A stretch of DNA of 32,000 bases from Telmatocola sphagniphila (GTDB lineage: Bacteria > Planctomycetota > Planctomycetia > Gemmatales > Gemmataceae), in the NCBI RefSeq assembly GCF_018398935.1, contig NZ_CP074694.1, positions 5,070,001-5,102,000 of the forward strand, in the 5' to 3' direction. The position numbers and the translations under genes were made by a program. The notes under the pieces were generated by a model. It was not told the origin of the DNA, did no database searches, and saw nothing but the letters and a program-made list of their open reading frames with translations. Position 1 is the stretch's first letter. Each line of letters opens with the position of its first letter. Positions 3,611 through 32,000 of this stretch are shown here, piece by piece.

Positions 3611-4273
3611 TTATGGCAGCGGTCCACCCGGAATCGTCGTATTAACGGTGATGGGTATATCTTTCATGCATAACCAGGTTTGCTTCGCGTAAACGGTGGG
3701 ATTGGCACCCAGGAAAAAGAACAAGTTACTGGGAGACCACCGGGCGAAACTGAACGGATAGGCGACACTCACCTGCAACACGTCATACTGCTGCACCGTA
3801 GAGTCGTTGCAGGGATCGTAAGAGGGTGCGCTGCCAGACTGAGTCACAGCGACGATTTGTGAAATTCCGGTCGAACTGTTGGGTGTCACTTGGGCTGTAC
3901 AAGTCACGCCACGCGTAACGTTGGTGACGGTAATGGTGATGATCGCTCCACCGGTACCCGACATCGGCAGGCCCGAGTTTTGCATGTAATTGGCAACCGC
4001 CGATTGCACCTGGAAGGTCAGGGGACCACTATTCGAACTGAATTGGTTCGGGGTTTGGGTTAATATCGAAGAAGCGTTGTAAAGACCGGTTGCGGCCAGT
4101 CGCGCCCCCTCCCGCGCGGAATTCGATACCATTTGGGTGACATTTAGTAATTGTCCCACTTCCCAAATTCCGAACAAAAGCAACATCATAAACGGCAGCA
4201 CGACGGCGGTTTCGACCGCAGCAACACCCCGTCTGACATGGCCTTTGATCTGTCGCATTCGCATGGGTTTCAT
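3611..4273 (-). CDS. TadE-like pseudopilin (Flp pilus assembly minor component)
   Basis: N-terminus MKPMRMRQIKGHVRRGVAAVETAVVLPFMMLLLFGIWEVGQ: a basic stretch, then the xVExAxxxP motif, then a hydrophobic helix, as in the TadE N-terminal domain. It is the first gene of a three-gene minus-strand operon. Confidence 0.8.
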   Translation of the reverse strand: MKPMRMRQIKGHVRRGVAAVETAVVLPFMMLLLFGIWEVGQLLNVTQMVSNSAREGARLAATGLYNASSILTQTPNQFSSNSGPLTFQVQSAVANYMQNSGLPMSGTGGAIITITVTNVTRGVTCTAQVTPNSSTGISQIVAVTQSGSAPSYDPCNDSTVQQYDVLQVSVAYPFSFARWSPSNLFFFLGANPTVYAKQTWLCMKDIPITVNTTIPGGPLP

Positions 4274-5521: not shown

Positions 5522-6760
5522 ATGGTAAGTTCTCACTTACGCTTTCCGACCGATCGCACCTGTATCACGGGGATAGGTGCCGGTACGCCTTTGGGTTGGG
5601 ATTTCGAATCGATATCGCAGAATCTGCTGGCGGGTAAATCTGCCGTGCGGGAGATCCTGGGTTTCGACGTCGCGAACCATCCTTCGAAGATCGGGGCGGG
5701 AATCGCCGATGTGCCGGTGCCGCCCGGTTTCAGCGAGGTTGCCTTCCGAAGCCGTTCCCGACTCGAGCAACTCTGTCTGTTCTGCGTGCAGGCTTCGCTG
5801 CAGGACGCCGGCCTGTGGCAGAAGAAAGACCAACTGCGAATCGGACTGATTATCGGCAATGCTTCCGACTGCATGTGGCACTGGGAAGAAGATGGCCTGA
5901 CGTTCATGAAAGAGGAATACTGTCTGGCCAAGAGAGATCGCCCGCCCTTGGTTTCGATCATACAAAAAGAACTGGGCATCCAGGGACCGGCCACCGTTCT
6001 GTCGGCGGCCTGTGCTTCCGCCAACTTTGCCTTCGACATGGCCCGGCAATGGCTCGACCTGGGACTGGCCGATGTCTGCCTTGCGGGAGGTTGCGATACC
6101 GGCCTGACGGCCGTGACGCTAGCCTGCTTCGGTAACCTCCGGGCGCTCTCTCGCAACAACGAAAATCCTGCCGGGGCTTCCCGACCATTCGACCGGGGCC
6201 GCGATGGCTTCGTTCTGGGCGAAGGGGGCGTCATGTTCGTTCTGGAAAAAGAAAACCGGGCTAAGAGCCGTTCCGCTCCGATTTATGGCAACGTTCTCGG
6301 TTGCGGCTTAACCAGCGACGCCCACCATATGGTGATCCCCAATCCGGAACCGACTCAGGCGGCCCGGGCCATTCGCATGGCCCTCGAAGAAGCCGGGCTC
6401 AATCCTGATCAGGTCGATTATGTAAATGCTCACGGCACCAGCACTCCAGTCGGCGATGCCGCGGAGGCGAAGGCCATCCAGATGGTGTTCGAGGAGATCA
6501 CTCGAATCGTGCCGGTCAGCTCGACTAAGAGTATGACTGGTCATTTATTGACAGCCGCCAGTGCTCTGGAAGCTTTGGCTTGTCTAACGGCGTTTCGCTA
6601 CAGCGCCATCCCGCCGACAATCAATCTGCAGGACATAGATCCTGATTGTCAGCTAAATCACGTCGCAAATCACGTCCAGGAACGCAAAGTCAAAGTAGCC
6701 TTGAGCAACAGCTTTGGCTTCGGTGGGTCCAATAGCTGCCTGGTGCTGGCCGCCGCGTAA
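5522..6760 (+). CDS. Beta-ketoacyl-ACP synthase family protein (FabF/KAS II-like, complete Cys-His-His triad)
   Basis: 412 aa. Active-site Cys in LSAACASANFAFD, first His in TSDAHHMV, second His in VNAHGTSTPVGD, and the C-terminal SNSFGFGGSNSCLVL motif. Confidence 0.9.
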   Translation: MVSSHLRFPTDRTCITGIGAGTPLGWDFESISQNLLAGKSAVREILGFDVANHPSKIGAGIADVPVPPGFSEVAFRSRSRLEQLCLFCVQASLQDAGLWQKKDQLRIGLIIGNASDCMWHWEEDGLTFMKEEYCLAKRDRPPLVSIIQKELGIQGPATVLSAACASANFAFDMARQWLDLGLADVCLAGGCDTGLTAVTLACFGNLRALSRNNENPAGASRPFDRGRDGFVLGEGGVMFVLEKENRAKSRSAPIYGNVLGCGLTSDAHHMVIPNPEPTQAARAIRMALEEAGLNPDQVDYVNAHGTSTPVGDAAEAKAIQMVFEEITRIVPVSSTKSMTGHLLTAASALEALACLTAFRYSAIPPTINLQDIDPDCQLNHVANHVQERKVKVALSNSFGFGGSNSCLVLAAA

Positions 6761-6874
6761 CCGGAATTGTTGGAGAAAAGTTTGACGGCGATTTCCCGAT
6801 CGCCCGAATCTGTTCGTGAGTCGCCTTGGTATAATGCCTCTCAGCGCTCCATTTGCAAATCCATGGACTGAGTG

Positions 6875-8548
6875 ATGTTCCGTCGATTATTACTTCGCAC
6901 CGCCGGGCGATTGGTGGCTCGACCCATTCGCCGTCGTCTCAATGCCTTCGTTGCAACCACGCATCATCCGGAAACCGCTCAGAGCGATCTGCTGCAGCGA
7001 ATCATTGCCAAGCAGCGGGACACTGGCTTCGGCCGCGATCACGGCTTCTCCACCATTCGTACGGTCGAAGACTTCCGCCGACAGATTCCGGTTGCGCCCT
7101 ATGAATACGTCGCCCCGTACGTTCAACGGGTGCAAAAAGGGGAAACCAGCGCGCTGCTGTCCGATCCGCAGGTACTGATGTTCGCCCTCACTTCCGGCAC
7201 CACGGCCAGCCGCAAGATGATCCCCATTACTCAGGACTACCTGGACGATTATCGCCGGGGCTGGAACATCTGGGGACTGACGGCCATGCGCGATCATCCG
7301 GTGATCTCGCTGAAGCCGATGGCTCAGATGGTTGGCGATCCCGAAGAATTCCGCTGCGAAGCGGGCATCCCCTGCGGCAATCTCTCCGGCTATACGGCGC
7401 AAGTTCAAAAGAAGATCGTGCGCGGTCTGTACACTGTCCCGGCGTATACCGGAAAAATCAAAGACCCGGTTAGTCGATACTATGTGGCTCTATTGTGTAG
7501 CTTGCGCCGAAAAGTCGGCATGCTGATGGCCGCTAATCCCAGTACGCTGGTGGCACTGGCCCGGGTCCTCGATCTGCACAAGGAAAACCTCCTCCGGGAT
7601 CTGGCTCAGGGCACCCTCTCCAACAACTTGGACATCGCCCCCGAATTGCGCGCAGCCCTGGCACTGCGACTCAAGGCCGATCCGGCTCAGGCAAAAAAAC
7701 TGGAAGCCATCGCCCAGCGCGAACCTGTGTTCCTTCCCAAACATGTCTGGAAACCGGAAGAACTGATGATCGGCTGCTGGACCGGCGGCAGCGTGGGGCC
7801 TTACCTGCGTCAGTTGCCCGATTACTATGGCAACACCCTGCTGCGCGATATCGGTCTACTGGCCAGTGAAGGACGGATGACCATTCCGCTGGAAGACAAC
7901 TCCCCGGCGGGCGTTCTGGATATCAGCAGCCATTACTTCGAGTTCATTCCGGAAGGGGAGATCGAGTCGAAGCAGCCGATTTGTCTGCGCGCCCACGAAC
8001 TCGAAGAAGGTAAGCCCTACTACATCCTGCTCACCACCAAATCGGGATTGTATCGGTATCACATCGTCGACCTGGTGCGGATGACCGGTAAATTCAACGG
8101 CACGCCGCTCATCGAATTCCTCGGGAAGGGAAACCGCTTTGCGAATCTGACCGGGGAGAAGCTCAGCGAACATCATGTCACCCAGGCGATGATTCATGTG
8201 ATGAAGACGATCCCTCAACCGATCACGGCCTACGCCCTCGCGCCGGTCTGGGACGAGAAGCAGCCTTATTACGGGATTTTTCTGGAAGAGCAGGATATGA
8301 AAGATCCGGTGCTGCTGGCCAGCTTCCTGAAGGGACTGGAAGCCGAGTTACGCCGGCAGAACGTGGAATACGATGCGAAGCGGGACAGCGGCCGGTTAGG
8401 TCCGGTACAAGCCCTAAAGATTTCAACCGGAGCCTGGAGCCGCTGGGACAAACAGAACCTCGCCAAGCGCGGCGGCAGCCCGGAGCAATACAAGCATCCT
8501 TGTCTGATTGGCGATCTCGAATTTGTGAAAGAGATCGAGAAGTTTTAA
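6875..8548 (+). CDS. GH3-family acyl-acid amido synthetase (adenylate-forming, ANL superfamily)
   Basis: The three GH3 nucleotide-binding motifs are visible: LTSGTTASRKMIP, LLASEG (compare plant YASSE), and GLYRYHIVDLVRMTG (compare plant GLYRYRxGD). The track starts at GTG 6872; the adjacent ATG at 6875 is equally possible. Confidence 0.85.
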   Translation: MFRRLLLRTAGRLVARPIRRRLNAFVATTHHPETAQSDLLQRIIAKQRDTGFGRDHGFSTIRTVEDFRRQIPVAPYEYVAPYVQRVQKGETSALLSDPQVLMFALTSGTTASRKMIPITQDYLDDYRRGWNIWGLTAMRDHPVISLKPMAQMVGDPEEFRCEAGIPCGNLSGYTAQVQKKIVRGLYTVPAYTGKIKDPVSRYYVALLCSLRRKVGMLMAANPSTLVALARVLDLHKENLLRDLAQGTLSNNLDIAPELRAALALRLKADPAQAKKLEAIAQREPVFLPKHVWKPEELMIGCWTGGSVGPYLRQLPDYYGNTLLRDIGLLASEGRMTIPLEDNSPAGVLDISSHYFEFIPEGEIESKQPICLRAHELEEGKPYYILLTTKSGLYRYHIVDLVRMTGKFNGTPLIEFLGKGNRFANLTGEKLSEHHVTQAMIHVMKTIPQPITAYALAPVWDEKQPYYGIFLEEQDMKDPVLLASFLKGLEAELRRQNVEYDAKRDSGRLGPVQALKISTGAWSRWDKQNLAKRGGSPEQYKHPCLIGDLEFVKEIEKF

Positions 8549-8679
8549 AATGAGATGAAGTTTATGCGATGGGGTTTAAAATAAACTTTCTCTTATTTAA
8601 AATCTGTTCTTCGCAAGTACTTCATAAGCAATTTCTAATTTTAAACTCCGTCGCCCGGGTCTATCGGAGTTTCAGGTTA

Positions 8680-9738
8680 ATGCGTTCTATCAAACGTGGG
8701 GCTTTCACGCTCATCGAACTGCTGGTGGTGATCGCCATCATCGCGGTTCTCATCGGCCTTTTGTTACCGGCCGTGCAAAAAGTCCGGGAGGCCGCTTCCC
8801 GGATGCAGTGTTCCAACCATTTGAAGCAAATCGGGCTGGCTTTTCACAACTACGCCAGCGTCAACGGGACATTACCGCGCGGCGGTCGCGATGGTCGACC
8901 GTCCGGCCAGCCGACTCAGAACTGCTGCAACTGGACGGATAATAACCAGGCGAAATCCAACGCGGCCGGCGTCAAGGATGATCGGGACGGCTACAGCTGG
9001 CGCTACTGGATCCTGCCGTACATTGAGCAGGATAATGTTTACAACGCGATCGAGCGTGCAACGGTATACAACGCGGCGATCAAAATCTACTATTGCCCCT
9101 CCCGTCGGGACGCCGAGTCCTACAGCGGTTCGGCCCGCTGCGACTACAACGGGAACGCCGGATCCTATTTCTCCAACGGCACCCCCACCGACGACTCCGC
9201 CGGTTCGAGCGGCAACGGCAGTCCGGCTGTGACGGAAACCAATACTTTCGATGGCGTGGTGCTTCGATCCAACGTCGCTCCGGTGGCCTTAAACCGCATC
9301 AGCGATGGAACTTCCAATACACTGCTGGTCGCCGAGAAGTGGCTCCATCCGCTGCGGGTGGCAACAGCGGCCGCCTCCGGCAACGATGGGGGCGATAACG
9401 AAGTCTGGTGTAATGCGGGTTGGGATGAATGCATTGTTCGCGTCGGTGCAGGCACTTATAGCTATCTCTACAACGGCGGCCAACCCGCCGGACCCGGCTC
9501 CACGACTCGTACCATTCCCCGGACTCCTCGGCCCGACATCGAAGCCCCTTGCGTGGTCGATGCCGCGGGCAAACCCGTAACCATCTGGAACCAACAATTC
9601 GGCGGACCGCACCCCGGCGGCGTTAACACGGTCTTTTGCGATGGATCGGTGCGTACCGTGACGTTCAGCGTGGATGCCGCGACCTGGGCCGCTGCCTGCA
9701 CGCGTAACGGCAATGAAACGTTGTCCATCAACAACTAA
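8680..9738 (+). CDS. DUF1559-family protein with a prepilin-type N-terminal cleavage/methylation leader
   Basis: [58 protein letters not shown] is the classical [10 protein letters not shown] pseudopilin leader followed by the DUF1559 signature. The C-terminal part contains ...FCDGSVR.... I use ATG 8680 (GGAG about 10 nt upstream) rather than the track start at 8569, which adds 37 non-pilin residues. Confidence 0.9.
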
Positions 9739-9757
9739 ACTCTGGGCGGAGAAAACT

Positions 9758-9937
9758 TTGAATAAATGGCTATTGGTGATTTTTCTGTGCGGAATTCCGC
9801 TGGCTGCAGGCTGCGGGGGCGCCAAGGAAGAGAAAAGATCGGCCCAGGATCTGGAAGCTTTACAGAATAAGGATCAGGCGTCCGTGGACGAAGCCGAGAG
9901 GCGACTGGAGCGTCCCGGCGAGAAGCGCAAACGCTAG
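9758..9937 (+). CDS. 59-aa mini-lipoprotein with a charged, probably disordered tail
   Basis: TTG start 6 nt after GGAG (9748..9751). It reads M-NKWLLVIFLCGIPLAAGCGGAKEEKRSAQDLEALQNKDQASVDEAERRLERPGEKRKR, a short signal peptide with lipobox LAAGC. The track ORF 9674..9937 is in the same frame but overlaps the DUF1559 gene. An ATG at 9713 is an alternative start. Confidence 0.55.
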   Translation: MNKWLLVIFLCGIPLAAGCGGAKEEKRSAQDLEALQNKDQASVDEAERRLERPGEKRKR

Positions 9938-9943
9938 TTGAGT

Positions 9944-10420
9944 CTACTTGTCGTCCCGGTTCGGATCGAACGCGGGACTATTGGGATCGTCATCCCGGGG
10001 TACGCCGGTCTTTTCACCGGCTCCCCCATCCGGCAGTTCAATTTCAATCTGATTCCGCGTTTCCTCCACCGTCAACCTGACTTTCGATTCGATTTGAGTT
10101 CCGGTGACTGCGCCATTGCCGCCCGGATGATAAATCAGCTTGTATTTGCCTTTGGGCAAGCCCGGATAGAAGATCACCGGAGTATCTTTGAGCCGGCTGG
10201 TCCGCGCTTCGTAGGTGCCATCCGGATTGACTGATGCATCGAAGATGCAACCGCCACGGCCTCCCTCCTCGGCCACGAACAGGAGTCCGCCGCCGGTTAC
10301 CGGCTTGCCGTTTTGAATCACTTTTCCATTCACCGGATACAAACCCGAGAGGGTCGGGCCGGAATCCTGGCATCCGGAACACAAAAAGAGAGCGGTCAGT
10401 CCCAAAAACAGTCTTCGCAT
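9944..10420 (-). CDS. Lipoprotein with a carboxypeptidase-regulatory-like (small beta-sandwich) domain
   Basis: MRRLFLGLTALFLCSGCQ is a signal peptide plus lipobox. The body (YPVNGKVIQNGKPVTGGGLLFV...NPDGTYE...GLPKGKYKLIY) has the pattern I associate with CarboxypepD_reg-like lipoproteins that often neighbour DUF1559 genes. Confidence 0.7.
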   Translation of the reverse strand: MRRLFLGLTALFLCSGCQDSGPTLSGLYPVNGKVIQNGKPVTGGGLLFVAEEGGRGGCIFDASVNPDGTYEARTSRLKDTPVIFYPGLPKGKYKLIYHPGGNGAVTGTQIESKVRLTVEETRNQIEIELPDGGAGEKTGVPRDDDPNSPAFDPNRDDK

Positions 10421-16414: not shown

Positions 16415-16776
16415 CAATGAATTTCCGATTTCTTTAGTCATTTTGGAAACGAATGGTCTAAAGGTGTCGCTAAAACCGATATCGCCCGCACATTCTTATT
16501 GAAGTTCGCAGAATACCAATTCTCCTTGACCCAAAAAATCAGCCCCCTTAAACTATAGCGGATATCGTTAGGGTAGATCGCCTTCGATTGGCCATTAATT
16601 CCGCTGCCAAAACGGGTTACCACCTGGGCAGCTCTTTGGATTATTCGCAGGAACTGCAAATCTCTTATTCAAAATGCCTTAAACCGGACGCTCTCCCGAT
16701 TCCCAGTGCCAGGATCGCTTCCCTGGTGATGGTCTCTTTCAATGTGAACGTCCGCTAATTTTTGGGGAACCTCTTC

Positions 16777-19700
16777 ATGGTAATTCGATTCAAGCCCCGT
16801 CGTCTCTTCGCCAGTCTGGGGGCTGCTTGCCTATTTGCCGCAAATTCCCCAGTTCAAGCCCAGAACTATACCTGGAGCAGCTCGGCCCCCGGTGGCAACT
16901 GGTCGCAGTCAGCCAACTGGGGCGGCAGCGCCCCGTCCGGCGCCTCCCCCACGACTACGCTCACTTTCGGAGGCACGACGACCGCCGGCCTGACTAGCTC
17001 CAACGATATTGCGAATCTTCAAGTAAACTCGATCACTTTCAACTCGACGGCCGGGGCTTATAGCATCTCCGGAAACGCCATTCAGTTCCTGAACAGCGGA
17101 TCCACCATCACCCAAAATTCCAACAGTAATATCAGTCTACCTGCTTTGACTATCTCGAATGGGCTCAGCATCAACGGCTCGGGCACCGGAACTCTCACAG
17201 TTAATAGCCTGGCCTTCAACAGTGGCGGGGCCGGAAATCAGGCCAGTCTTGATACGGGATCGAAAGTGCTGGTTCTGAACGGCGATATGTCGCTGGATGG
17301 AAGCGGTGTACCGAATGCGGTGACTGTAAAAGGAACGATTCAACTGTCCGCGGGCAACCATACTTTCAATGGGTTGAACTATACCGGGGCGAATGCCCAG
17401 GACATCGTGTTCAGCAACGTCTTTCAGGGCTCCGGGGGCATCACTTATACCGGTATCGATTCTGTAGCCATCACGGGAGTCAGCACTTACACCGGTGCGA
17501 CCATCTTCTCGAGCACTACTGCCAACTACCTGGGAGCCACCAACGCCCTGCCCTCGGCCAGCGCGGTCACCGTGAATTCCACTTTGCAATTCTTCACGAC
17601 GGATCCCAGCGGCGGGGTGACCATTGGTAACTTCAGCCAGAACATCGGTTCGCTCGCGGGAGCGGGCTCGGTGAATATGGGCTCCGCCAGCCTGACCACC
17701 GGTAACGACAACACCAACACGACCTTTTCCGGTATTCTCAGCGACGATGGCTCGGGTAGCAGCACCATTACGAAAGTCGGAACAGGCACCTGGACTCTCA
17801 GCGGTACCAACACTTTCACCGGACAACTGGTCATCGCGAATGGCACAGTCGCCGTCGGTTCGTTCGCGGCCCCGGGAAACAGCAGTAATCTGGGAGCCAC
17901 GGCGGCCAGTAAGAACTTTATTTTGGGGGGTAACGGCACCACGGGCTTCCTCCAATACACCGGATCGAGTGCCGCCAGTTACTCCCGTAACTTCACCTTG
18001 GCTACCGGCGGAAGCGGCGGTTTCCTCGGAAATCTCGGCGATTTGACCCTCTCGGGCAGTATTAGCGGCAGTGGGAATCTGATCAAAGCCGGAACCAACA
18101 ACCTGATTTTAAGCGGTACGAACACCTTTACCGGTTCGATTACCGTCACCGGTGGGAATTTGAGTCTGACCGGAACCGCGAACTCTTCGGGCAATATTAA
18201 CCTGCTCGGTGGAAAACTCACTCTCGATAATACGGCCTCGGCTTTGACTCGATTGGGAACCACTCCCACGCTGACCCTGAACATGGGCGAGTTGAACATC
18301 ATCGGAAACACTGTGAATCCCAGCGGAAACATCGAAAACTTCGGTGCGCTCAATGTCATCGGGGGAACGAGCGCCAACAATCGCCTCACCCTGACGAATT
18401 CCGGCTCCGCTTTGCAAGTGACTTTTTCCAGTCTCAACGTCAGCAATGGCTCCAGCCTGCTGATTCGCGGCGACAATCTCGGCGGCAGCAGCGGCAGCTA
18501 TACCCGCGTGCTGTTCACCAGCGCCCCCGGGACGACTTCGGCCCCCCTATCGGGCGTACTCTTCGATAATTCCTCCAGCGGCACGGGACTGGGACTGGCC
18601 GCTTACAGTTCCACTCTCGGCATCGTTCAGTTCACCGCGGCCAACACCACGGGGAACATCATCGACAACATCAATTCGCCCAATACTTCCACGATCGCCA
18701 ACTTCACCACCGGCAACGGCGGCTCGACCTTGACCATCAACGCCGGGGCCACCATCGTCGCCCTGAACTTCAGCAACGAATTCAGCACGGCCAACTTCAA
18801 AAATCTCTACGGCTCCAGCGGCAACAACGCCAACGCTCCCGCCGGCACTCTGGTAGTCAGTAGTGGTCTGATCCAGGTCTTGAACACGGCCACCAATGTG
18901 ACCGTGAACGGCGATACGGGAGGCAGCACCCTCAGCACCGCGGGAGGCTTCACTTTCAATTTGAATCAGAATCTCACCTTCGCTTCGAACATGACACTCA
19001 GCGCGGCCGGTCTGACAAAACTGGGGGCCGGTAGCTTGGTGATCAACGGGACGAATTCAATCGCCGGAGATTACAACATTTCCAGCGGAAGTGTGAGCAT
19101 CGCCGGAGCCACGACCGCGGGGAACCTCAACATCAGCGGCTCTTCCGTGGCTTCCTTCAATAGTGCCAGCACTCTGAATTCGATCAATCTCAGTGGCACC
19201 GCAACAGTGAATTTTGCCGGCGGATCGGCCGGTAGCATCAGCTCGTCTTCCTCTTCGACATCTTTGAACCTGACCGGCAACCTCACTCTGACCGGCAATT
19301 CGACCACGACCTTCGCGGGTGTGATCAGTGGCGGATCGGCTTCGCTGATTACCAGTTCCGGCAGCACCGGCACTCTGACGCTAACCAACTCCAATACTTT
19401 CGGCGGTGGCTTGGCGGTTAACGGTGGAACGGTTTATCTGGCTAATGGCAACTCGGCCGGTACCGGCACGCTCACCCTCAACGGCGGGACCGTCAGTTAT
19501 TCAGGCGGCACGACGACCCTGGCCGCAGCCGGATTGAGCTTTGGAACCTTCGGAAGTAGTACTCTGCAAGTGACCACGGCCGGAACGGTCCTCACCGTCG
19601 CTGGCGTTTCCGGCTCGGGCTCCTGGACCTTCGATGGCGGCCAAGGCATCACTTCGACCAGCCGTGGCGGAACCCTGCTCATCAATTCGACCTCGGTCTC

Positions 19701-21147
19701 CTCGGGCGGTTCGCTGTCGGTCATTGGCAACGGGCTGGTACAACTGGGAGCCAATAATGCCCTACCCAGCGGCATCAACTTAAATGTGACTCCCGGCAAC
19801 GTCTCGAACGTTGGAGCCGGCCTGGATCTTCAGACGTTCAACCAGACGGTTGGCAACATTACAGCGACACTCGGCACCAGCAACTCGCCGATCACCGGCC
19901 AGCCCATCGTTCAGGGAAGCGGTACTTTAACGCTCAACGGCGATGTCAGCATTGTGACCTCCGGCTCGGCCAGCTATCCTCTGACCATCAATCCTTCGGT
20001 CGTACTGTCGGCGGGTAACCACAATTTCTCAACGCAGGCCGGCGGTAATTCGGATGTGTATCACGGCGATTTGCAGTTCCTCGGTAGCATCAGCGGCGCA
20101 GGCAGCGTGACACTGCCCTCCACTTCTCAAGGAATTATCGACTTCGAAGTCGCCAACACTTACACCGGCACAACTTCCGTGCTCGGCGGCACGCTGTACT
20201 TACGCGGCAATAATGCCATTCCCTCAACCAGTGCCGTCACCCAGGCGGCCGGGACGGTGATCGATTTCACCGGCGGGAACGTCCTCACCAGCGGTACCAG
20301 TTCTACCTTTGGTTCACTGACGGGAGCCGGCAGCATTATTCTCGGCTCTTCCTCAATACTGACAATCGGAGCCGATAACACCTCCCCCGCGGCCTACACG
20401 GGAGCCATCAGCGGCGGCGGCAGTCTTACGAAAATCGGAACCGGCACACTCATCCTCAGCGGAACGAACACGTACACCGGCGGGACCAACGTGAATGCCG
20501 GTAGCCTTCGCATTAACGGGTCCCTCTCCACGGGGGCCGTGCAAGTTTCGCAGGGGGCAATCATCGGCGGGAACGGCAGCATCAATGGCACTCTGACGGT
20601 CGCGGCCGGAGGGACGATCGACATTGGTAGTGCACCGGCAACTGTCGGTACCCTACGCGTCGGAGGCAGTGTCACCATTAATGGCGGTACCGGGGGCTCG
20701 ACGACCAACTGGAATGTCGACATCAACGGTACGACTACCAGCAGCGCCGACAATTTGACGCTGCTCAGTAGCTCGGCGGTTTTGAATTTCGTCGCCACCG
20801 GCGGCAACAAAATCAACATTCAGATGAATGATCTGGCGTCGGGTATGGTGGTGAATAACGACTACACATTCAAGATTGCTACCGTTTCGACCGGCACGGG
20901 ATCGACGAACATCCAGAGCAACGGCGGCGTGTTCACCGCCTCGCAGTTCACCTTCTCGGCAACGAATTTCGCATTCACCAATCAGAACATCGCCATCAAT
21001 GGCGACAACCTGATCATCTCGTTCACGGTGATTCCCGTGCCCGAACCCGCCACACTGCTGGTGTTTGGTTCGGCCGGACTGGGAATGCTGGGGTGGATGC
21101 GAAGGCGCAAAAATCGCAAACTTACCAGCACCGCCTCGATTGCGTAA
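16777..21147 (+). CDS. Giant secreted autotransporter-associated beta-strand-repeat protein with a C-terminal PEP-CTERM sorting domain
   Basis: Signal peptide MVIRFKPRRLFASLGAACLFAANSPVQA|QN, using ATG 16777 (the track uses TTG 16762). There are many repeats of the type K(V/A/I)GTGTLxLSGTNT(F/Y)TGxxxVxxGxLxV. The C-terminus VIPVPEPATLLVFGSAGLGMLGWMRRRKNRKL has VPEP at 21037..21048, then a TM helix and a basic cluster. Confidence 0.9.
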   Translation: MVIRFKPRRLFASLGAACLFAANSPVQAQNYTWSSSAPGGNWSQSANWGGSAPSGASPTTTLTFGGTTTAGLTSSNDIANLQVNSITFNSTAGAYSISGNAIQFLNSGSTITQNSNSNISLPALTISNGLSINGSGTGTLTVNSLAFNSGGAGNQASLDTGSKVLVLNGDMSLDGSGVPNAVTVKGTIQLSAGNHTFNGLNYTGANAQDIVFSNVFQGSGGITYTGIDSVAITGVSTYTGATIFSSTTANYLGATNALPSASAVTVNSTLQFFTTDPSGGVTIGNFSQNIGSLAGAGSVNMGSASLTTGNDNTNTTFSGILSDDGSGSSTITKVGTGTWTLSGTNTFTGQLVIANGTVAVGSFAAPGNSSNLGATAASKNFILGGNGTTGFLQYTGSSAASYSRNFTLATGGSGGFLGNLGDLTLSGSISGSGNLIKAGTNNLILSGTNTFTGSITVTGGNLSLTGTANSSGNINLLGGKLTLDNTASALTRLGTTPTLTLNMGELNIIGNTVNPSGNIENFGALNVIGGTSANNRLTLTNSGSALQVTFSSLNVSNGSSLLIRGDNLGGSSGSYTRVLFTSAPGTTSAPLSGVLFDNSSSGTGLGLAAYSSTLGIVQFTAANTTGNIIDNINSPNTSTIANFTTGNGGSTLTINAGATIVALNFSNEFSTANFKNLYGSSGNNANAPAGTLVVSSGLIQVLNTATNVTVNGDTGGSTLSTAGGFTFNLNQNLTFASNMTLSAAGLTKLGAGSLVINGTNSIAGDYNISSGSVSIAGATTAGNLNISGSSVASFNSASTLNSINLSGTATVNFAGGSAGSISSSSSSTSLNLTGNLTLTGNSTTTFAGVISGGSASLITSSGSTGTLTLTNSNTFGGGLAVNGGTVYLANGNSAGTGTLTLNGGTVSYSGGTTTLAAAGLSFGTFGSSTLQVTTAGTVLTVAGVSGSGSWTFDGGQGITSTSRGGTLLINSTSVSSGGSLSVIGNGLVQLGANNALPSGINLNVTPGNVSNVGAGLDLQTFNQTVGNITATLGTSNSPITGQPIVQGSGTLTLNGDVSIVTSGSASYPLTINPSVVLSAGNHNFSTQAGGNSDVYHGDLQFLGSISGAGSVTLPSTSQGIIDFEVANTYTGTTSVLGGTLYLRGNNAIPSTSAVTQAAGTVIDFTGGNVLTSGTSSTFGSLTGAGSIILGSSSILTIGADNTSPAAYTGAISGGGSLTKIGTGTLILSGTNTYTGGTNVNAGSLRINGSLSTGAVQVSQGAIIGGNGSINGTLTVAAGGTIDIGSAPATVGTLRVGGSVTINGGTGGSTTNWNVDINGTTTSSADNLTLLSSSAVLNFVATGGNKINIQMNDLASGMVVNNDYTFKIATVSTGTGSTNIQSNGGVFTASQFTFSATNFAFTNQNIAINGDNLIISFTVIPVPEPATLLVFGSAGLGMLGWMRRRKNRKLTSTASIA

Positions 21148-27554: not shown

Positions 27555-27709
27555 CGCGCCTCGGCCTCAAATAAAATTTAGCTACCAATTTTCCAATTTG
27601 CTCGCTCTGCTTGCTTCCAGCCGTTGCCCGCTCGTTTCTCATATAAAAGCCGTAGAAACAAATCTTGTCAGCGATTCGTATCGCCGGTCGAACACGGGTT
27701 TTCGAACAT

Positions 27710-29152
27710 ATGATGACCACCAATTCCCTGAATACCATCCACGGCACATACGAAAAATTGGATACCCACGCCAAAGCCTTGCGAATCAACATCGATAAGC
27801 GCCGTTACGGCACCTTTGCGGAAATCGGCGCCGGCCAGGAGGTGGTCCGCTGGTTCTTTCGCGTCGGCGGTGCCTCCGGCACCATTGCCAAAAGCATCTC
27901 CGCCTACGATATGTCGGTTTCCGACGCCATCTACGGCGGCTGCGATCGCTACGTTTCCCGGCAGCGACTCGAAGCCATGCTGGATCACGAATATCAGCTC
28001 AACCTCGACCGGCTGATGCCCGATCGCGGCGATTCCTCGGCCTTTTTTGCCTTCGCGGATACCGTGGCCGCTCGCAATTTTTCGGGCACCAACGAAAGCC
28101 ACGGCTGGATGGGGGTCCGCTTCCAGGTCTTCCCACGCGATGAGGCCAGTCAGATCACTCTGCACGTGCGCATGCTCGACAAGGAAAATCTGTTACAGCA
28201 GGAGGCGCTGGGAATCATCGGCGTCAATCTGCTCTATGGAGCCTTCTACTTCAATCAGGAGCCCGAACAGCTGCTCGAATCGCTGCAGGATGGCCTGGCA
28301 CCCGGGCGGATCGAAATCGACATGATCGAATTCGCCGGGATCGGCTTCCGGCAGGTCGACAATCGACTGGCGGCCTTGAAACTGGTCCAACTGGGCCTGA
28401 GCGATGCGGCCATGTTCGACGCCTCGGGTAAGGCGCTGCAGCCTTCCGAAGTGTTTCGCAAAAGACCGGTCCTGGTCGAACGGGGCAGCTTTCATCCGGT
28501 GACCAACGTAAACGTCGATATGATGCGGGCGGCTGAGGAGACCTTTGCCAGCGAGCTCCCCCCGGAGGACAAAGACAACATCGTGCGGGTCATGGAATTG
28601 ACCATGAAAAATCTGCTAACCGGGGAGAAGGTCGATCACCGCGACTTTCTGGCCCGGGCGGATCTGATGGCCGCCTGCGGAATGACCGTACTGATTTCCG
28701 ATTACTTCGAATACTATCGTCTGGCCGCCTATCTCAATCAGCACACCAAAAAACGCATCGGCATCGTCATGGGGGCGGCCAGCGTTCGGGAACTTTTCGA
28801 TCCCAAATATTACACGCATCTCGATGGGGGAATTCTGGAGTCGTTCGGCCGGTTGTTCAAACACGAATTGAAAGTCTACGTTTATCCGTTTCTGAATCCG
28901 GAGCTGCAGAAGCTGGAAACGGTGGATAATCTGGAAGTGAACCCGCTGCTCTCCAAACTCTACGGCCATCTGGCCGATCATGGCTATCTCGTCCAGCTGA
29001 AGAACTACCGGGACGACTGCCTGGGAATCTTCTCCCGCGATGTGCTCAACAAGATTCAAAAAAATATCCCGGGCTGGGAAGCTTCAGTGCCCGAGGAAGT
29101 GGCCAAACTCATTCATCAGAAGTGCTTTTTCGGCTATAAAGCGCATCGATAA
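27710..29152 (+). CDS. Conserved-looking protein of unknown function (about 480 aa)
   Basis: Long ORF with protein-like composition. The N-terminal segment INIDKRRYGTFAEIGAGQEVVRWFFRVGGASGTIAKSISAYDMSVSDAIYG looks like a conserved motif that I cannot assign to a family. I use ATG 27710; the track uses TTG 27665. Confidence 0.6.
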   Translation: MMTTNSLNTIHGTYEKLDTHAKALRINIDKRRYGTFAEIGAGQEVVRWFFRVGGASGTIAKSISAYDMSVSDAIYGGCDRYVSRQRLEAMLDHEYQLNLDRLMPDRGDSSAFFAFADTVAARNFSGTNESHGWMGVRFQVFPRDEASQITLHVRMLDKENLLQQEALGIIGVNLLYGAFYFNQEPEQLLESLQDGLAPGRIEIDMIEFAGIGFRQVDNRLAALKLVQLGLSDAAMFDASGKALQPSEVFRKRPVLVERGSFHPVTNVNVDMMRAAEETFASELPPEDKDNIVRVMELTMKNLLTGEKVDHRDFLARADLMAACGMTVLISDYFEYYRLAAYLNQHTKKRIGIVMGAASVRELFDPKYYTHLDGGILESFGRLFKHELKVYVYPFLNPELQKLETVDNLEVNPLLSKLYGHLADHGYLVQLKNYRDDCLGIFSRDVLNKIQKNIPGWEASVPEEVAKLIHQKCFFGYKAHR

Positions 29153-29184
29153 GTATCGAAGTGGGGATCTCGATCTGTAACAAA

Positions 29185-29210
29185 CTTGGAGAATAATTGA
29201 ACTCTCCAAG
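29185..29210 (-). terminator. Hairpin in the convergent gap; likely terminator of the minus-strand DUF1559/lipoprotein unit, possibly bidirectional
   Basis: 8-bp stem cttggaga (29185..29192) / tctccaag (29203..29210) with a 10-nt loop. On the minus strand it is followed by TTTGTTAC. Confidence 0.4.
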
Positions 29211-29238
29211 CAAATCTATTTCCGCGGGACGCGTGAAA

Positions 29239-29412
29239 TCAATCGGATCCCTTGGGTTTGGGAGCTTCTGCCGCTTTACCGTTCTTTCCGACTGGACCCG
29301 GAGGAGCCGTTGGGGGAGCCTTCGTCGCGGTAGGCTTGCTCGATTCGCCCCCACAGCCCGCCAGAAGACCAAAACAACCACACAGTACACACACGCTCAG
29401 TAACTTTCTCAC
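29239..29412 (-). CDS. 57-aa mini-lipoprotein (copy A), not in the supplied ORF track
   Basis: GTG 29412 to TGA 29241..29239 gives MRKLLSVCVLCGCFGLLAGCGGESSKPTATKAPPTAPPGPVGKNGKAAEAPKPKGSD, with lipobox LLAGC. The protein is identical to copy B. All 5 nucleotide differences between the copies are synonymous third-position changes. Confidence 0.75.
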   Translation of the reverse strand: MRKLLSVCVLCGCFGLLAGCGGESSKPTATKAPPTAPPGPVGKNGKAAEAPKPKGSD

Positions 29413-29434
29413 TGCTTCTGCCCTTCTACTTGAT

Positions 29435-29474
29435 GTTAAAACCGAAAATGGCGAAAAGTTCCCTTCTCGCCATT
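29435..29474 (-). promoter_or_regulatory. Conserved intercistronic hairpin plus T-tract (attenuator/terminator-like), copy A
   Basis: 8-bp stem aatggcga (29447..29454) / tcgccatt (29467..29474) with a 12-nt loop. On the minus strand it is followed by TTTCGGTTTTAAC. It lies between the DUF1559 stop (29500) and the lipoprotein start (29412). The hairpin is identical in copy B. Confidence 0.4.
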
Positions 29475-29499
29475 ACAGATTGCTTCGAATCAAAAATTA

Positions 29500-30471
29500 T
29501 TAGTTGCCGCCAATGAGATCGAAGTTGATGATACCACCATCGTTGATACCGCCACACTGCTGCAGAGCCGTCCAATCCGCCGCACCCGGAGTGGTTCCCA
29601 CACCCTTGCGGACGTGGCGAACCGAACCGTCGCAATAGGCGAACTGCACGATACCCGTGTGCTTGCTGCCGTAGGTGTACCACTGAGCCGTACTCGGGAT
29701 ACCCCAGTACAGAGGCAAAGAACCCGCACCCATCCACGTCAAAGAATAATCCCGAGGACCGACGTCGGTACCACCCAGGCATTCACCGAATGCAAACGTG
29801 TTCGACGTGCCGTCCGTGATCGACGTGATCTTCGTCTTCGAGTCGGCGTAGTAGACGCCCGCGTTCGGATAGGTCTGACCGAACTCGCCCGCGCAACCGA
29901 TGTAGTTGCAACGGCCAGCTCCGGGATACAGCGAAGGAGAACCGCCGGCGGCATTCCCACCGTTGGCGTTGTAGTAACCCGTCAAGGTACTGCCAGTGAT
30001 GGTCAAGCCGATGAACACGCCGTATTGCTGGTTGAATTGATCGCCATCGGAGGGGCACAGGAAGCTCTTCACTACCGTGCGACCAGCCGTGATGCCCGGG
30101 GCCGTGGCGCCCAGACCGATGGAGCCCCACCAGTTGCTGCTGTAAGAGTCCATGAACATATTCGCGGGAATCAGGTTGTACGCGTTACCCTGCTCGATGT
30201 ACGGCAGAATATAGGCCATCACACCCAACCACGAGGTGCTGGCATTCAAGCCGGGAGGGAAGTAACCGTAGGCGCTTTCGTAGTTGTGAGAGGCCAGAGC
30301 GATCTGCTTCAGGTTGTTCTGGCAGCTCATACGAGCCGCGGCTTCACGAACCTTCTGCACCGCCGGCAGCAACAGACCGATCAGGATCGCGATGATCGCG
30401 ATCACCACCAGCAACTCGATCAGCGTGAAACCGCGTCGAGCTTGCTTACGGGCGTTCAACAATTTCAACAT
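29500..30471 (-). CDS. DUF1559-family protein with a prepilin-type N-terminal leader (paralog 1)
   Basis: [66 protein letters not shown]..., with C-terminal ...FAYCDGSVRHV.... I use ATG 30471 (GGAG 8 nt upstream). The track start at 30519 adds 16 residues from a poly-pyrimidine tract. Confidence 0.9.
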   Translation of the reverse strand: MLKLLNARKQARRGFTLIELLVVIAIIAILIGLLLPAVQKVREAAARMSCQNNLKQIALASHNYESAYGYFPPGLNASTSWLGVMAYILPYIEQGNAYNLIPANMFMDSYSSNWWGSIGLGATAPGITAGRTVVKSFLCPSDGDQFNQQYGVFIGLTITGSTLTGYYNANGGNAAGGSPSLYPGAGRCNYIGCAGEFGQTYPNAGVYYADSKTKITSITDGTSNTFAFGECLGGTDVGPRDYSLTWMGAGSLPLYWGIPSTAQWYTYGSKHTGIVQFAYCDGSVRHVRKGVGTTPGAADWTALQQCGGINDGGIINFDLIGGN

Positions 30472-30816
30472 GCCGCACTCCAACAAAAGAAAAAAAGAAA
30501 AATGAAAGAAACAACTCACAACTACTGCTTGTGTGGAATCGAGATTTATCGCAACTCCTGAACAAACAAACAGTTCCTGACAGCCTCAAATGTGGCGATG
30601 AGATAATGTGCAGAACAGAGGAAAGTTTCTCTGCTTAATTGATAATGAAAATGCTATTAAATAACAATGATTTATAAATTAATAATTGATTTTTAATTCG
30701 ATTAAAATTTGTTTATCTGATGTGAAAATCAACAAATTAAAGAGTCAAATCTGGCTGAAGGCTCACTTCCACCAGATTATATAAATATTATTTAATTTAA
30801 AATAAGACTCATTTAA

Positions 30817-30990
30817 TCAATCAGATCCCTTGGGTTTGGGAGCTTCTGCCGCTTTACCATTCTTGCCGACTGGACCCGGAGGAGCTGTCGGGGGAGCCTT
30901 CGTCGCGGTAGGCTTGCTCGATTCGCCCCCACAGCCCGCCAGAAGACCAAAACAACCACACAGTACACACACGCTCAGTAACTTTCTCAC
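30817..30990 (-). CDS. 57-aa mini-lipoprotein (copy B)
   Basis: Same protein as copy A when started at GTG 30990. The track calls 30817..31050 (77 aa) from an ATG that exists only in this copy. A 1-nt indel puts that ATG out of frame in copy A. Confidence 0.75.
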   Translation of the reverse strand: MRKLLSVCVLCGCFGLLAGCGGESSKPTATKAPPTAPPGPVGKNGKAAEAPKPKGSD

Positions 30991-31011
30991 TGCTTCTGCC
31001 CTTCTACTTGA

Positions 31012-31051
31012 TGTTAAAACGAAAATGGCGAAAAGTTCCCTTCTCGCCATT
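31012..31051 (-). promoter_or_regulatory. Conserved intercistronic hairpin plus T-tract, copy B
   Basis: aatggcga (31024..31031) / tcgccatt (31044..31051) with the same 12-nt loop as copy A. On the minus strand it is followed by TTTCGTTTTAAC. Confidence 0.4.
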
Positions 31052-31073
31052 CAATTTTCAAATCTCGAGTTTA

Positions 31074-32000
31074 TTAATTGCCGCCGATCAGATCGAAGTT
31101 GATGATATTACCATCCGAGATACCGCCGGCCGACTGCAGGGCCACCCAATCCGCTGAATAAGGAGTGGTACCCACGCCTTTGCGAAGGTGACGAACCGAG
31201 CCATCAGCATAAGCGAATTGAATGATATCGGTGTGCTTGCTGCTGAAGTTGTACCAATTCGAAGGTTTTGGCAGACCCCAGTACAAAGGCATCGAACCCG
31301 CACCCGCCCAGGTCAACGAATAATCCCGAGGACCGGTATCCGTCCCACCCAGGGTTTCGCCGAACGCGATCGTGTTCGACGTACCGTCGGTGATGGACAC
31401 AATCGACGTCTTGGAATCTAGAAAGTAGATCCCGCCGTACGGCTGGAAGGTCGGACCAAATGCACCCGCACAACCAATGTAGTTTGATCGACCGGCCGGG
31501 GGATTGGGACTGCTACCGCCACCCGCGGCGTTACCGCCGTTAGCGTTATAGAAGCCGTAGAAGGTCGAATTGTACTGATCGATCACCAGACCGATGAACA
31601 CGCCGTATTGCTGATTGAATTGATCGCCATCGGACGGACACAGATAAGACTTAATCACCGTTCGGGCGGCAGTGATACCCGGAGCCGTGGCACCCAAACT
31701 GATCGAGCCCCACCACAGTGAACTGTAGGTCGGCTGGAACATCGCCGAAGGAATCAGATTGTACGCATTGCCTTGTTCGATATAGGGCAGAATTTCAGCG
31801 AGGACCCCCAGCAGGGATTGATTACCCGCACTCATACCGGCTTGAAGATTCGTGGGATTCACGACCAAACCGGGAGGAAATACCCCGTAGGCGCTTTCGT
31901 AGTTGTGAGAGGCCAGAGCGATTTGCTTCAGGTTGTTCTGGCAGCTCATGCGAGCCGCGGCTTCACGAACCTTCTGCACCGCCGGCAGCAACAGACCGAT
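31074..32000 (-). CDS. DUF1559-family protein (paralog 2); partial, 5' end beyond the right edge
   Basis: The frame is open from stop 31074 to the window edge. The visible N-terminal part ...[36 protein letters not shown]... begins inside the pilin-like helix, so the leader lies outside the window. By eye it is roughly three-quarters identical to paralog 1. Confidence 0.9.
   Translation of the reverse strand: MGLLLPAVQKVREAAARMSCQNNLKQIALASHNYESAYGVFPPGLVVNPTNLQAGMSAGNQSLLGVLAEILPYIEQGNAYNLIPSAMFQPTYSSLWWGSISLGATAPGITAARTVIKSYLCPSDGDQFNQQYGVFIGLVIDQYNSTFYGFYNANGGNAAGGGSSPNPPAGRSNYIGCAGAFGPTFQPYGGIYFLDSKTSIVSITDGTSNTIAFGETLGGTDTGPRDYSLTWAGAGSMPLYWGLPKPSNWYNFSSKHTDIIQFAYADGSVRHLRKGVGTTPYSADWVALQSAGGISDGNIINFDLIGGN

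Follow-up and report, generated by a model that had tools for sequence, protein, structure and literature searches.

The DUF1559 (SBP_bac_10) proteins make up the largest paralogous family of the Planctomycetes, with 68–100 genes per genome and an unknown function (PMC10632474; PMC2754498). Two DUF1559 genes are essential in Planctopirus (PMC10632474), and the proteomics of Tuwongella found proteins with N_methyl and SBP_bac_10 domains in the Triton- and SDS-soluble (membrane) fractions (PMC8567305). In this work, we analysed a stretch of 32,000 nucleotides from Telmatocola sphagniphila (assembly GCF_018398935.1, contig NZ_CP074694.1, positions 5,070,001 to 5,102,000), referred to below as the window. 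As read from its sequence, the window ends in two tandem copies, A and B, of a two-gene envelope module of a Gemmataceae-type planctomycete, in which a DUF1559 gene is followed by a gene for a small lipoprotein. The two copies are nearly identical at both ends and strongly diverged in the middle. An earlier note on this DNA had explained this mosaic either by gene conversion homogenising the ends or by strong constraint on the ends combined with diversification of the globular part of the DUF1559 protein, and had pointed out that a fixed small lipoprotein partner would be a functional clue to DUF1559.

Gene conversion between paralogues is textbook biology, and the tufA/tufB genes of Salmonella are the textbook case of concerted evolution brought about in this way. 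As for the parts of the module, a terminator-like hairpin is common after major pilin genes. Among the proteins of the envelope, Lpp is a small lipoprotein, and the (Lys-Pro) region of TonB is a Pro-rich periplasmic spacer.

Results

Mosaic divergence between the tandem copies

Both modules lie head-to-tail on the minus strand, and each consists of a DUF1559 gene, a terminator-like hairpin with a stem of 12–13 bp, and a 57-aa open reading frame (ORF) with a lipobox. The coordinates of all these elements are given in Table 1. The DUF1559 starts of the two copies are 1619 nt apart and their lipoprotein stops 1578 nt; copy B was assigned its start with the help of the JGI contig L001. The full-length copy B was recovered from a collection of 5.8 billion proteins (P0002, 76% identical to the copy A protein) and from two JGI contigs of 1.4 kb, L001 and L002, which carry copy B with 3 and 12 mismatches, respectively, over ~1.2 kb.

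The alignment of the two copies reproduced all coordinates and difference counts of the earlier note. Near the 5' end, positions 30266..30381 and 31885..32000 differ at 2 of 116 nt, both differences being synonymous. At the 3' end, five substitutions and one 1-nt indel were found in 236 nt (29239..29474 against 30817..31051), and the non-coding hairpin and its flanks are near-identical as well. The central DUF1559 body is ~75% identical in nucleotides and contains several indels, and the alignment is poor over the ~25 nt that separate the DUF1559 stop from the hairpin.

The synonymous (dS) and nonsynonymous (dN) divergence was calculated on the codon alignment by the Nei–Gojobori method. For codons 16–68, dS was 0.136 and dN was 0.008, and for the lipoprotein ORF the values were 0.119 and 0, whereas the body (alignment columns 69–317) gave a dS of 1.30 and a dN of 0.22, corresponding to an omega (dN/dS) of 0.17. 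Codons 1–15 showed an intermediate dS of 0.38, and in the alignment of the 5' untranslated regions a weaker similarity continued upstream of the DUF1559 ATG to about −33. Of the codons specifying the same amino acid in both copies, 46/51 were identical in the 5' tract and 52/57 in the lipoprotein ORF, compared with 102/183 in the body (Fisher p = 2.5e-6 and 2.4e-7, respectively). The max-chi-square segmentation set the diverged core at columns 69–317, inside which 47% of such codons differed, as opposed to 11.5% outside. In 300 permutations the observed value was never attained, which confirmed, together with the full alignment, that the identity is non-uniform. The last ~20 codons of the DUF1559 gene also fall within the low-divergence 3' part.

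Gene conversion as the probable source of the mosaic

As the ends are young and the core is old at synonymous sites, the pattern points to recombination between the copies. Protein constraint was excluded as the cause by comparisons with paralogues. The third DUF1559 gene of the window (8569..9738) shares 44/52 residues with copy A in its N-terminal 52 codons, and the dS between them is nevertheless 1.73. In five other tandem arrays (L006, L015, L016, L019, L116), the small lipoproteins are only 26–37% identical; they evolve fast (pN, the proportion of nonsynonymous differences, ~0.5). These Gemmataceae arrays contain two or three modules, and their lipoprotein genes have diverged as much as the DUF1559 bodies. 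Even in a young duplicate pair in L006, the lipoprotein and the body show 81% and 86% amino-acid identity, with proportions of synonymous differences (pS) of 0.42 and 0.34, respectively. Thus, a clustered low synonymous divergence that constraint does not explain, with a dS of 0.12–0.14 at the ends against 1.3 in the body, supports gene conversion, the first of the two causes put forward earlier.

We therefore consider it probable that, within a module of a pilin-like and a lipoprotein gene, an old duplication was later homogenised at its ends by gene conversion. In this course of events, the bodies would have diverged after the tandem duplication (dS ~1.3) under purifying selection. Later, non-reciprocal recombination between the neighbours would have overwritten two tracts of ~0.2 kb, one in the 5' part, where the pilin helix is encoded, and one in the 3' part with the hairpin and the lipoprotein gene, resetting their dS to ~0.12–0.14. 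At the five sites that tell the two lipoprotein genes apart, copy-A alleles also occur in environmental variants of copy B, at 2/5 sites in L001 and at 4/5 in L002, which possibly reflects continuing exchange or short-read chimerism.

Alternatively, the whole module could have been duplicated recently (dS ~0.12), after which the central ~750 nt of one copy would have been replaced through homologous recombination with a diverged DUF1559 gene, either a paralogue located elsewhere or an allele of foreign origin. The exchange would have been anchored in the pilin-helix region and at the 3' end. Both ends do have the same dS, as if they were of one age; the import would also account for the 25 nt after the stop that align poorly; and paralogues resemble one another closely enough in the N-terminal coding region for recombination to be anchored there. 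However, no candidate donor was found. In the collection of 5.8 billion proteins, nothing matches the body of either copy better than the other copy does (75% identity), the next best being 73% for B (P0006) and 67% for A, and no third protein of the 6.59-Mb source contig occurs among the best 120 matches, which speaks against a donor of the core within the genome. The mutual closeness of the bodies favours an old duplication with conversion of the ends over a foreign core. No orthologous two-copy locus was found for a tract-by-tract comparison, and the comparison with outgroups was made at the protein level only: the N-terminal identity between A and B is 98%, as against 82–93% to the outgroups, while the 75% of the bodies stands against 73% between B and P0006. 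Furthermore, the duplication is not clean, as an AT-rich spacer of 300 nt lies before A only and the upstream homology stops at about −33, and the dS of codons 1–15 resembles a patchwork of several exchanges. On this evidence, replacement of the core appears unlikely.

Conversion of the ends also has to be set against an origin by selection only, in which the copies are of uniform age, the ends are held by constraint, and diversification of the globular domain is either tolerated or favoured. The protein sequence of the N-terminal helix does hardly vary within the family (of the columns in the family alignment, 53 are invariant, mostly at residues 15–59), and dN in the ends is ~0. Meanwhile, the contrast between ends and body is tenfold at synonymous sites, the equally constrained N-terminus of the third paralogue has not kept its dS low, the small lipoproteins are fast-evolving elsewhere, and the identity is not confined to coding sequence but includes the hairpin with its flanking nucleotides. 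As the source of the pattern, constraint on the leader and the lipoprotein is thus contradicted. Neither did the diversification of the globular part, which the earlier note had offered as part of this alternative, hold up: an omega of 0.17 in the body means purifying selection with no diversifying signal, and diversifying selection was rejected. Selection as the only cause is very improbable.

The 57-aa ORF is predicted to encode a lipoprotein

The 57-aa ORF begins with a GTG codon preceded by AAGGG. Its signal peptide, MRKLLSVCVLCGCFGLLAG|C, has a basic n-region, a hydrophobic core, and a lipobox fitting the pattern [LVI][ASTVI][GAS]C with the Cys at position 20, all of which predict a textbook lipoprotein. 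The mature peptide consists of 38 aa, is rich in Pro, Gly, Lys, and Ala, and has a net charge of +3.

The proteins of copies A and B are identical, and the nucleotide differences between the two ORFs (5/5) are all synonymous and in third positions. An ATG-extended ORF of 77 aa exists in copy B only: in copy A that frame is broken by the 1-nt indel, which lies in the tail of the hairpin and ahead of the GTG codon, so that the GTG ORF is the only version common to both copies. The antisense ORF takes an amino-acid change (F/L) between the copies. Because the differences are all synonymous, the indel breaks the upstream extension, and the antisense ORF takes a replacement, the 57-aa ORF appears to be translated and, judged by this pattern of substitutions, is a real gene.

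The 57-aa protein has no match above the cutoff in Pfam or NCBIfam. Both this protein and the 77-aa version of copy B are absent from the 5.8-billion-protein collection, which does hold the DUF1559 proteins of the window; evidently, the source annotation had passed over the small genes. A homology search with the single 57-aa sequence gave no candidate, and a scan of genome contigs with the lipoprotein gave no relative.

Small lipoprotein genes follow DUF1559 genes at other loci

The lipoprotein partner was examined at 79 planctomycete genome loci, from Gemmataceae and others, that surround relatives of copy A. For this, each long ORF was scored for a lipobox ORF on the same strand starting at most 300 nt downstream. 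With a strict criterion, such ORFs were found after 36/94 DUF1559 genes and 8/350 control genes. With a relaxed criterion, the numbers were 44/87 and 12/298 for any lipobox ORF (Fisher p = 9e-23) and 27/87 and 6/298 for ORFs of at most 100 aa (Fisher p = 4e-14), and most matches of the control genes look spurious. Lipobox ORFs are thus in clear excess after DUF1559 genes. A lipoprotein ORF of 49–83 aa follows 18 of the 20 homologues closest to copy A, one of the exceptions being the first gene of a tandem pair. In metagenomes (80 loci), 58 of the 69 DUF1559 genes with enough downstream DNA have a lipobox ORF. The closest foreign homologue, P0003, is followed by a called gene of 60 aa (gene calls only), P0006 is followed by MIHRVLATAVFLGALIATGCGSGS…, and P0022 by MIQRLIAVAVLVGAVLVAGCGKSE…PPTAP….

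The mature partner peptides of 30–52 residues contain 19% Pro, 15% Gly, 12% Ala, and 11% Lys, with almost no hydrophobic residues and a net charge that is usually +2 to +4. In the alignment of 20 partners, only G19-C20, one Pro, and a loose PPxxP…G/K…PPxP…[DE]-end pattern are shared. In the reciprocal direction, the profile of these 20 partners retrieved five proteins from the 5.8 billion, all named "hypothetical protein" or "Lipoprotein" and all from Gemmata or metagenomes. For Gemmata sp. SH-PL17 and G. palustris, a gene with N_methyl and SBP_bac_10 domains lies immediately upstream of the gene of the retrieved protein, on the same strand. By sequence comparison, the lipopeptides belong to no described family.

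Taken together, these results support and extend the idea of a small lipoprotein partner, indicating that it is a regular, mostly unannotated companion typical of this DUF1559 subfamily. The word "fixed", as used in the earlier note, applies to the position, the lipobox, and the composition, which are conserved, but not to the sequence, which is not.

The more distant DUF1559 paralogues are followed by a lipoprotein of ~125–175 aa instead, or by none. The larger partner class (e.g., at L025, L037, L040, L044, L062, L140, L148, L150, and L157–L163) shows the pattern GC…V.G.V..DG.P…, and one of the three ~150-aa proteins tested against Pfam had a sub-threshold match to CarboxypepD_reg. At L004, where two DUF1559 genes are 86% identical, only the second one carries a lipoprotein.

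A repeat created by misassembly, or a 3' block of young non-coding DNA in which the 57-aa ORF is no gene, would agree with the lack of a call in the source annotation and of a Pfam or NCBIfam family, but is scarcely credible in view of two independent metagenome contigs that reproduce copy B with its hairpin and lipoprotein ORF, substitutions that are synonymous in the frame of the ORF and not in the antisense frame, a canonical lipobox, comparable ORFs after nearly all of the closest homologues, and equivalent ORFs annotated directly after DUF1559 genes in the two Gemmata genomes.

Dozens of JGI contigs of 1.2–2 kb (L001, L002, and L084–L163, from Ga0181502, Ga0181508, Ga0170475, and others) contain only the DUF1559 and small lipoprotein genes. 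Many of them end 0–60 nt from the lipoprotein stop, and L001 and L002, although from different samples (JGI 3300019242 and 3300019256), have an identical first base. These contigs look like assembled bicistronic transcripts, which they would be if the samples were metatranscriptomes and not metagenomes.

The DUF1559 proteins of both copies are pilin-like at the N-terminus

The proteins of copies A and B matched PF07596 (DUF1559/SBP_bac_10) with 139.3 and 135.1 bits, respectively (cutoff 23.3), and TIGR04294 (H-X9-DG) with 26.7 and 20.0 bits (cutoff 19). The copy A protein also matched PF07963 (N_methyl) with 35.6 bits (cutoff 21.2), and TIGR02532 gave 32.3 against a cutoff of 16.3. The C-terminal H-X9-DG motif of copy A is formed by H271 and D281-G282, and these three residues are invariant in an alignment of 50 sequences. 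At the protein level, both copies are ordinary members of the DUF1559 family.

The prepilin leader of copy A is MLKLLNARKQARRG|FTLIE, in which the cleavage and methylation site reads RRG|FTLIE. The AF2 model, based on 50 homologues, had a pLDDT of 92.3 and consists of a helix at residues 17–68 followed by a mixed alpha/beta domain with strands. A Foldseek search against the PDB gave type IV pilins as the top matches, over ~60 N-terminal residues only, with E values of 0.2 or worse and a TM score of ~0.16, and for the globular domain of ~250 residues no PDB analogue was found at E <= 0.001. The GspG equivalog TIGR01710 matched with 34 bits, well below its cutoff of 88.85, and at residues 13–72 only. 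No secretion or pilus assembly genes are adjacent within the window. The model thus presents the DUF1559 protein as pilin-like in its leader and helix, with a globular domain that has no solved analogue.

Hairpins and spacer

The intercistronic hairpins of both copies fit the pattern of Rho-independent terminators, with a G+C-containing stem, a GGAA loop, and a U-rich tail, and the fold of the copy A hairpin has −22.9 kcal/mol over a stretch of 101 nt. By this pattern match, the hairpin is terminator-like, i.e., a putative intrinsic terminator. It is the sole pattern of this kind in the region besides the weaker terminal hairpins after each lipoprotein gene, of which the one after gene A is the likely end of module A. 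The intercistronic hairpin belongs to no Rfam family at E <= 1. Of 18 other loci scored, 10 have a strong hairpin in the interval from the DUF1559 stop to the lipoprotein start, as assessed with rough mononucleotide shuffles only, and the sequences of these hairpins are unrelated.

The spacer of ~300 nt ahead of copy A has no counterpart ahead of copy B, the upstream region of B in L001 being unrelated. Its G+C content is 0.23 at 30600–30824, while the surrounding region otherwise has 50–60% G+C. The spacer presumably holds the promoter region of copy A; a sigma-70 promoter scan gave no minus-strand match in it, a result that is uninformative for planctomycetes.

Third module and other genes of the window

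A third, distant module on the plus strand served as an internal control. Its lipobox ORF, which reads …LAAG|CGG…, overlaps the 3' end of the DUF1559 gene by 26 nt. The mature part, AKEEKRSAQDLEALQNK…RLERPGEKRKR, is charged and not Pro-rich, representing a different flavour of partner. Convergent to this module, a 158-aa lipoprotein (MRRLFLGLTALFLCSG|C…) is encoded at 9944..10420 (−) and is similar to the partner class of ~150 aa; no DUF1559 gene lies upstream of it, and neither Pfam nor NCBIfam gave a match. A beta-ketoacyl synthase and a GH3-family protein are encoded at 5522..8548 (+), directly upstream of the third DUF1559 gene.

Elsewhere in the window are genes for a TadE-like protein (3611..4273, −) and for a 1461-aa protein with PATR repeats and a PEP-CTERM anchor (16762..21147, +). 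A 495-aa ORF without a Pfam or NCBIfam match (27665..29152, +) is convergent with module A.

Table 1. Positions of the module elements and divergence tracts in the window.
Feature	Position	Strand	Details
Copy A DUF1559 gene	29500..30471	−	323 aa from ATG, protein P0001
Copy A intercistronic hairpin	29447..29474	−	12-bp stem, GGAA loop, then UUCGGUUUUA; terminator scan
Copy A 57-aa lipoprotein ORF	29239..29412	−	GTG start
Terminal hairpin after lipoprotein gene A	29184..29211	−	11-bp stem, then UUUGUU; fold z = −4.1
Spacer between modules B and A	30520..30816	−	AT-rich; composition profile
Copy B DUF1559 gene	31074..32000	−	Cut by the window end; full protein P0002, 338 aa
Copy B intercistronic hairpin	31023..31052	−	13-bp stem, then UCGUUUUAAC; terminator scan, fold z = −3.8
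Copy B 57-aa lipoprotein ORF	30817..30990	−	GTG start
Terminal hairpin after lipoprotein gene B	30748..30778	−	Fold z = −3.3
5' homogenised tract, A	30266..30426	−	~Codons 16–68, pilin alpha-1 helix
5' homogenised tract, B	31885..32000	−	Part inside the window; continues beyond it
3' homogenised tract, A	29239..29474	−	Hairpin, lipoprotein ORF, and TGATT
3' homogenised tract, B	30817..31051	−	Local alignment
Old diverged core, A	29565..30267	−	Alignment columns 69–317; partner in B at 31139..31886
Third, distant module	8569..9937	+	DUF1559 gene 8569..9738 (389 aa), lipobox ORF 9713..9937; internal control

Discussion

The features described above suggest how the module may work. The DUF1559 protein is probably cleaved by a prepilin peptidase at G|F, and its helix would anchor it in the membrane, which is consistent with the proteomics of Tuwongella (PMC8567305). 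The hairpin would likely end most transcripts after the pilin-like gene, the lipoprotein being made from read-through at a lower level. The mature lipopeptide of 38 residues, which is Pro/Gly/Lys-rich, positively charged, and presumably disordered, probably acts beside its DUF1559 neighbour in the envelope.

A bolder, tentative proposal, which we regard as rather doubtful, is that DUF1559 proteins and the downstream lipoproteins are obligate two-component envelope units, and that conversion lets paralogues go on exchanging the parts that dock to shared machinery (the lipopeptide and the pilin helix), the ligand-binding body being left to drift. Such a unit may consist of a pilin-like, membrane-anchored binding protein and a disordered, polycationic, lipid-anchored peptide or, in other subfamilies, a ~150-aa beta-sandwich lipoprotein. 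If true, this would for the first time open the function of the largest planctomycete-specific gene family to experiment.

Several points weigh against a partnership of the two proteins and against conversion of the ends. About half of the more distant DUF1559 genes are without such a partner, and the lipopeptide sequence is poorly conserved across loci, which makes an interface that is both folded and specific less likely. That the two genes are co-transcribed, that transcription ends at the hairpin, that the small protein is lipidated, and that the two proteins touch each other are predictions. As to the mosaic, only two sequences were compared; a donor could be located elsewhere in the genome, and further array members could lie beyond the window. 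The first 15–30 codons of copy B were taken from a metagenome contig of a close strain, outside the window. The alleles shared by L001 and L002 with copy A could be assembly chimeras between near-identical copies. Finally, the two tracts have nearly equal dS, and a single event is more economical than two conversions.

What is new at this locus is a defined, recurrent, and essentially undescribed module of a DUF1559 gene, a hairpin, and a mini-lipoprotein gene; the mechanism that acts on it is ordinary, and so are the family members. A lipoprotein gene stands behind nearly every member of one subfamily, and current annotations systematically miss this partner. The mosaic illustrates cleanly, on a small scale, how tandem paralogues evolve in concert, and it is also a warning that identity between tandem copies says nothing about constraint.

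Within the DUF1559/SBP_bac_10 family, the proteins of copies A and B match all three models (N_methyl, SBP_bac_10, and H-X9-DG); the recurrent hairpin and mini-lipoprotein downstream of one subfamily go beyond what the family is known for. With type IV pilins and the pseudopilins of type II secretion systems (gonococcal pilin 1AY2, GspG), the proteins of the locus share the G|FTLIE leader and, as the AF2 model suggests, may share the order of an N-terminal helix of 50 residues followed by a beta-sheet domain. A terminator-like hairpin after the gene, as found here, is also common for major pilin genes. The likeness to type IV pilins and GspG is, however, limited to ~60 N-terminal residues, and the globular domain is unmatched.

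The small lipoproteins belong to the same size class as Braun's lipoprotein Lpp (~40–60 mature residues, lipid-anchored) but lack a coiled-coil-like composition. With the (Lys-Pro) region of TonB, they have in common Pro/Lys-rich, probably extended segments, although they contain no TonB domain.

As in tufA/tufB of Salmonella, paralogues of one genome keep tracts that are near-identical at synonymous sites beside older sequence. Unlike tufA/tufB, the copies described here are adjacent, and only their two ends are homogenised. In the pilE/pilS system of Neisseria, conversion moves the variable part of the pilin, whereas at this locus it is the conserved part that would be exchanged.

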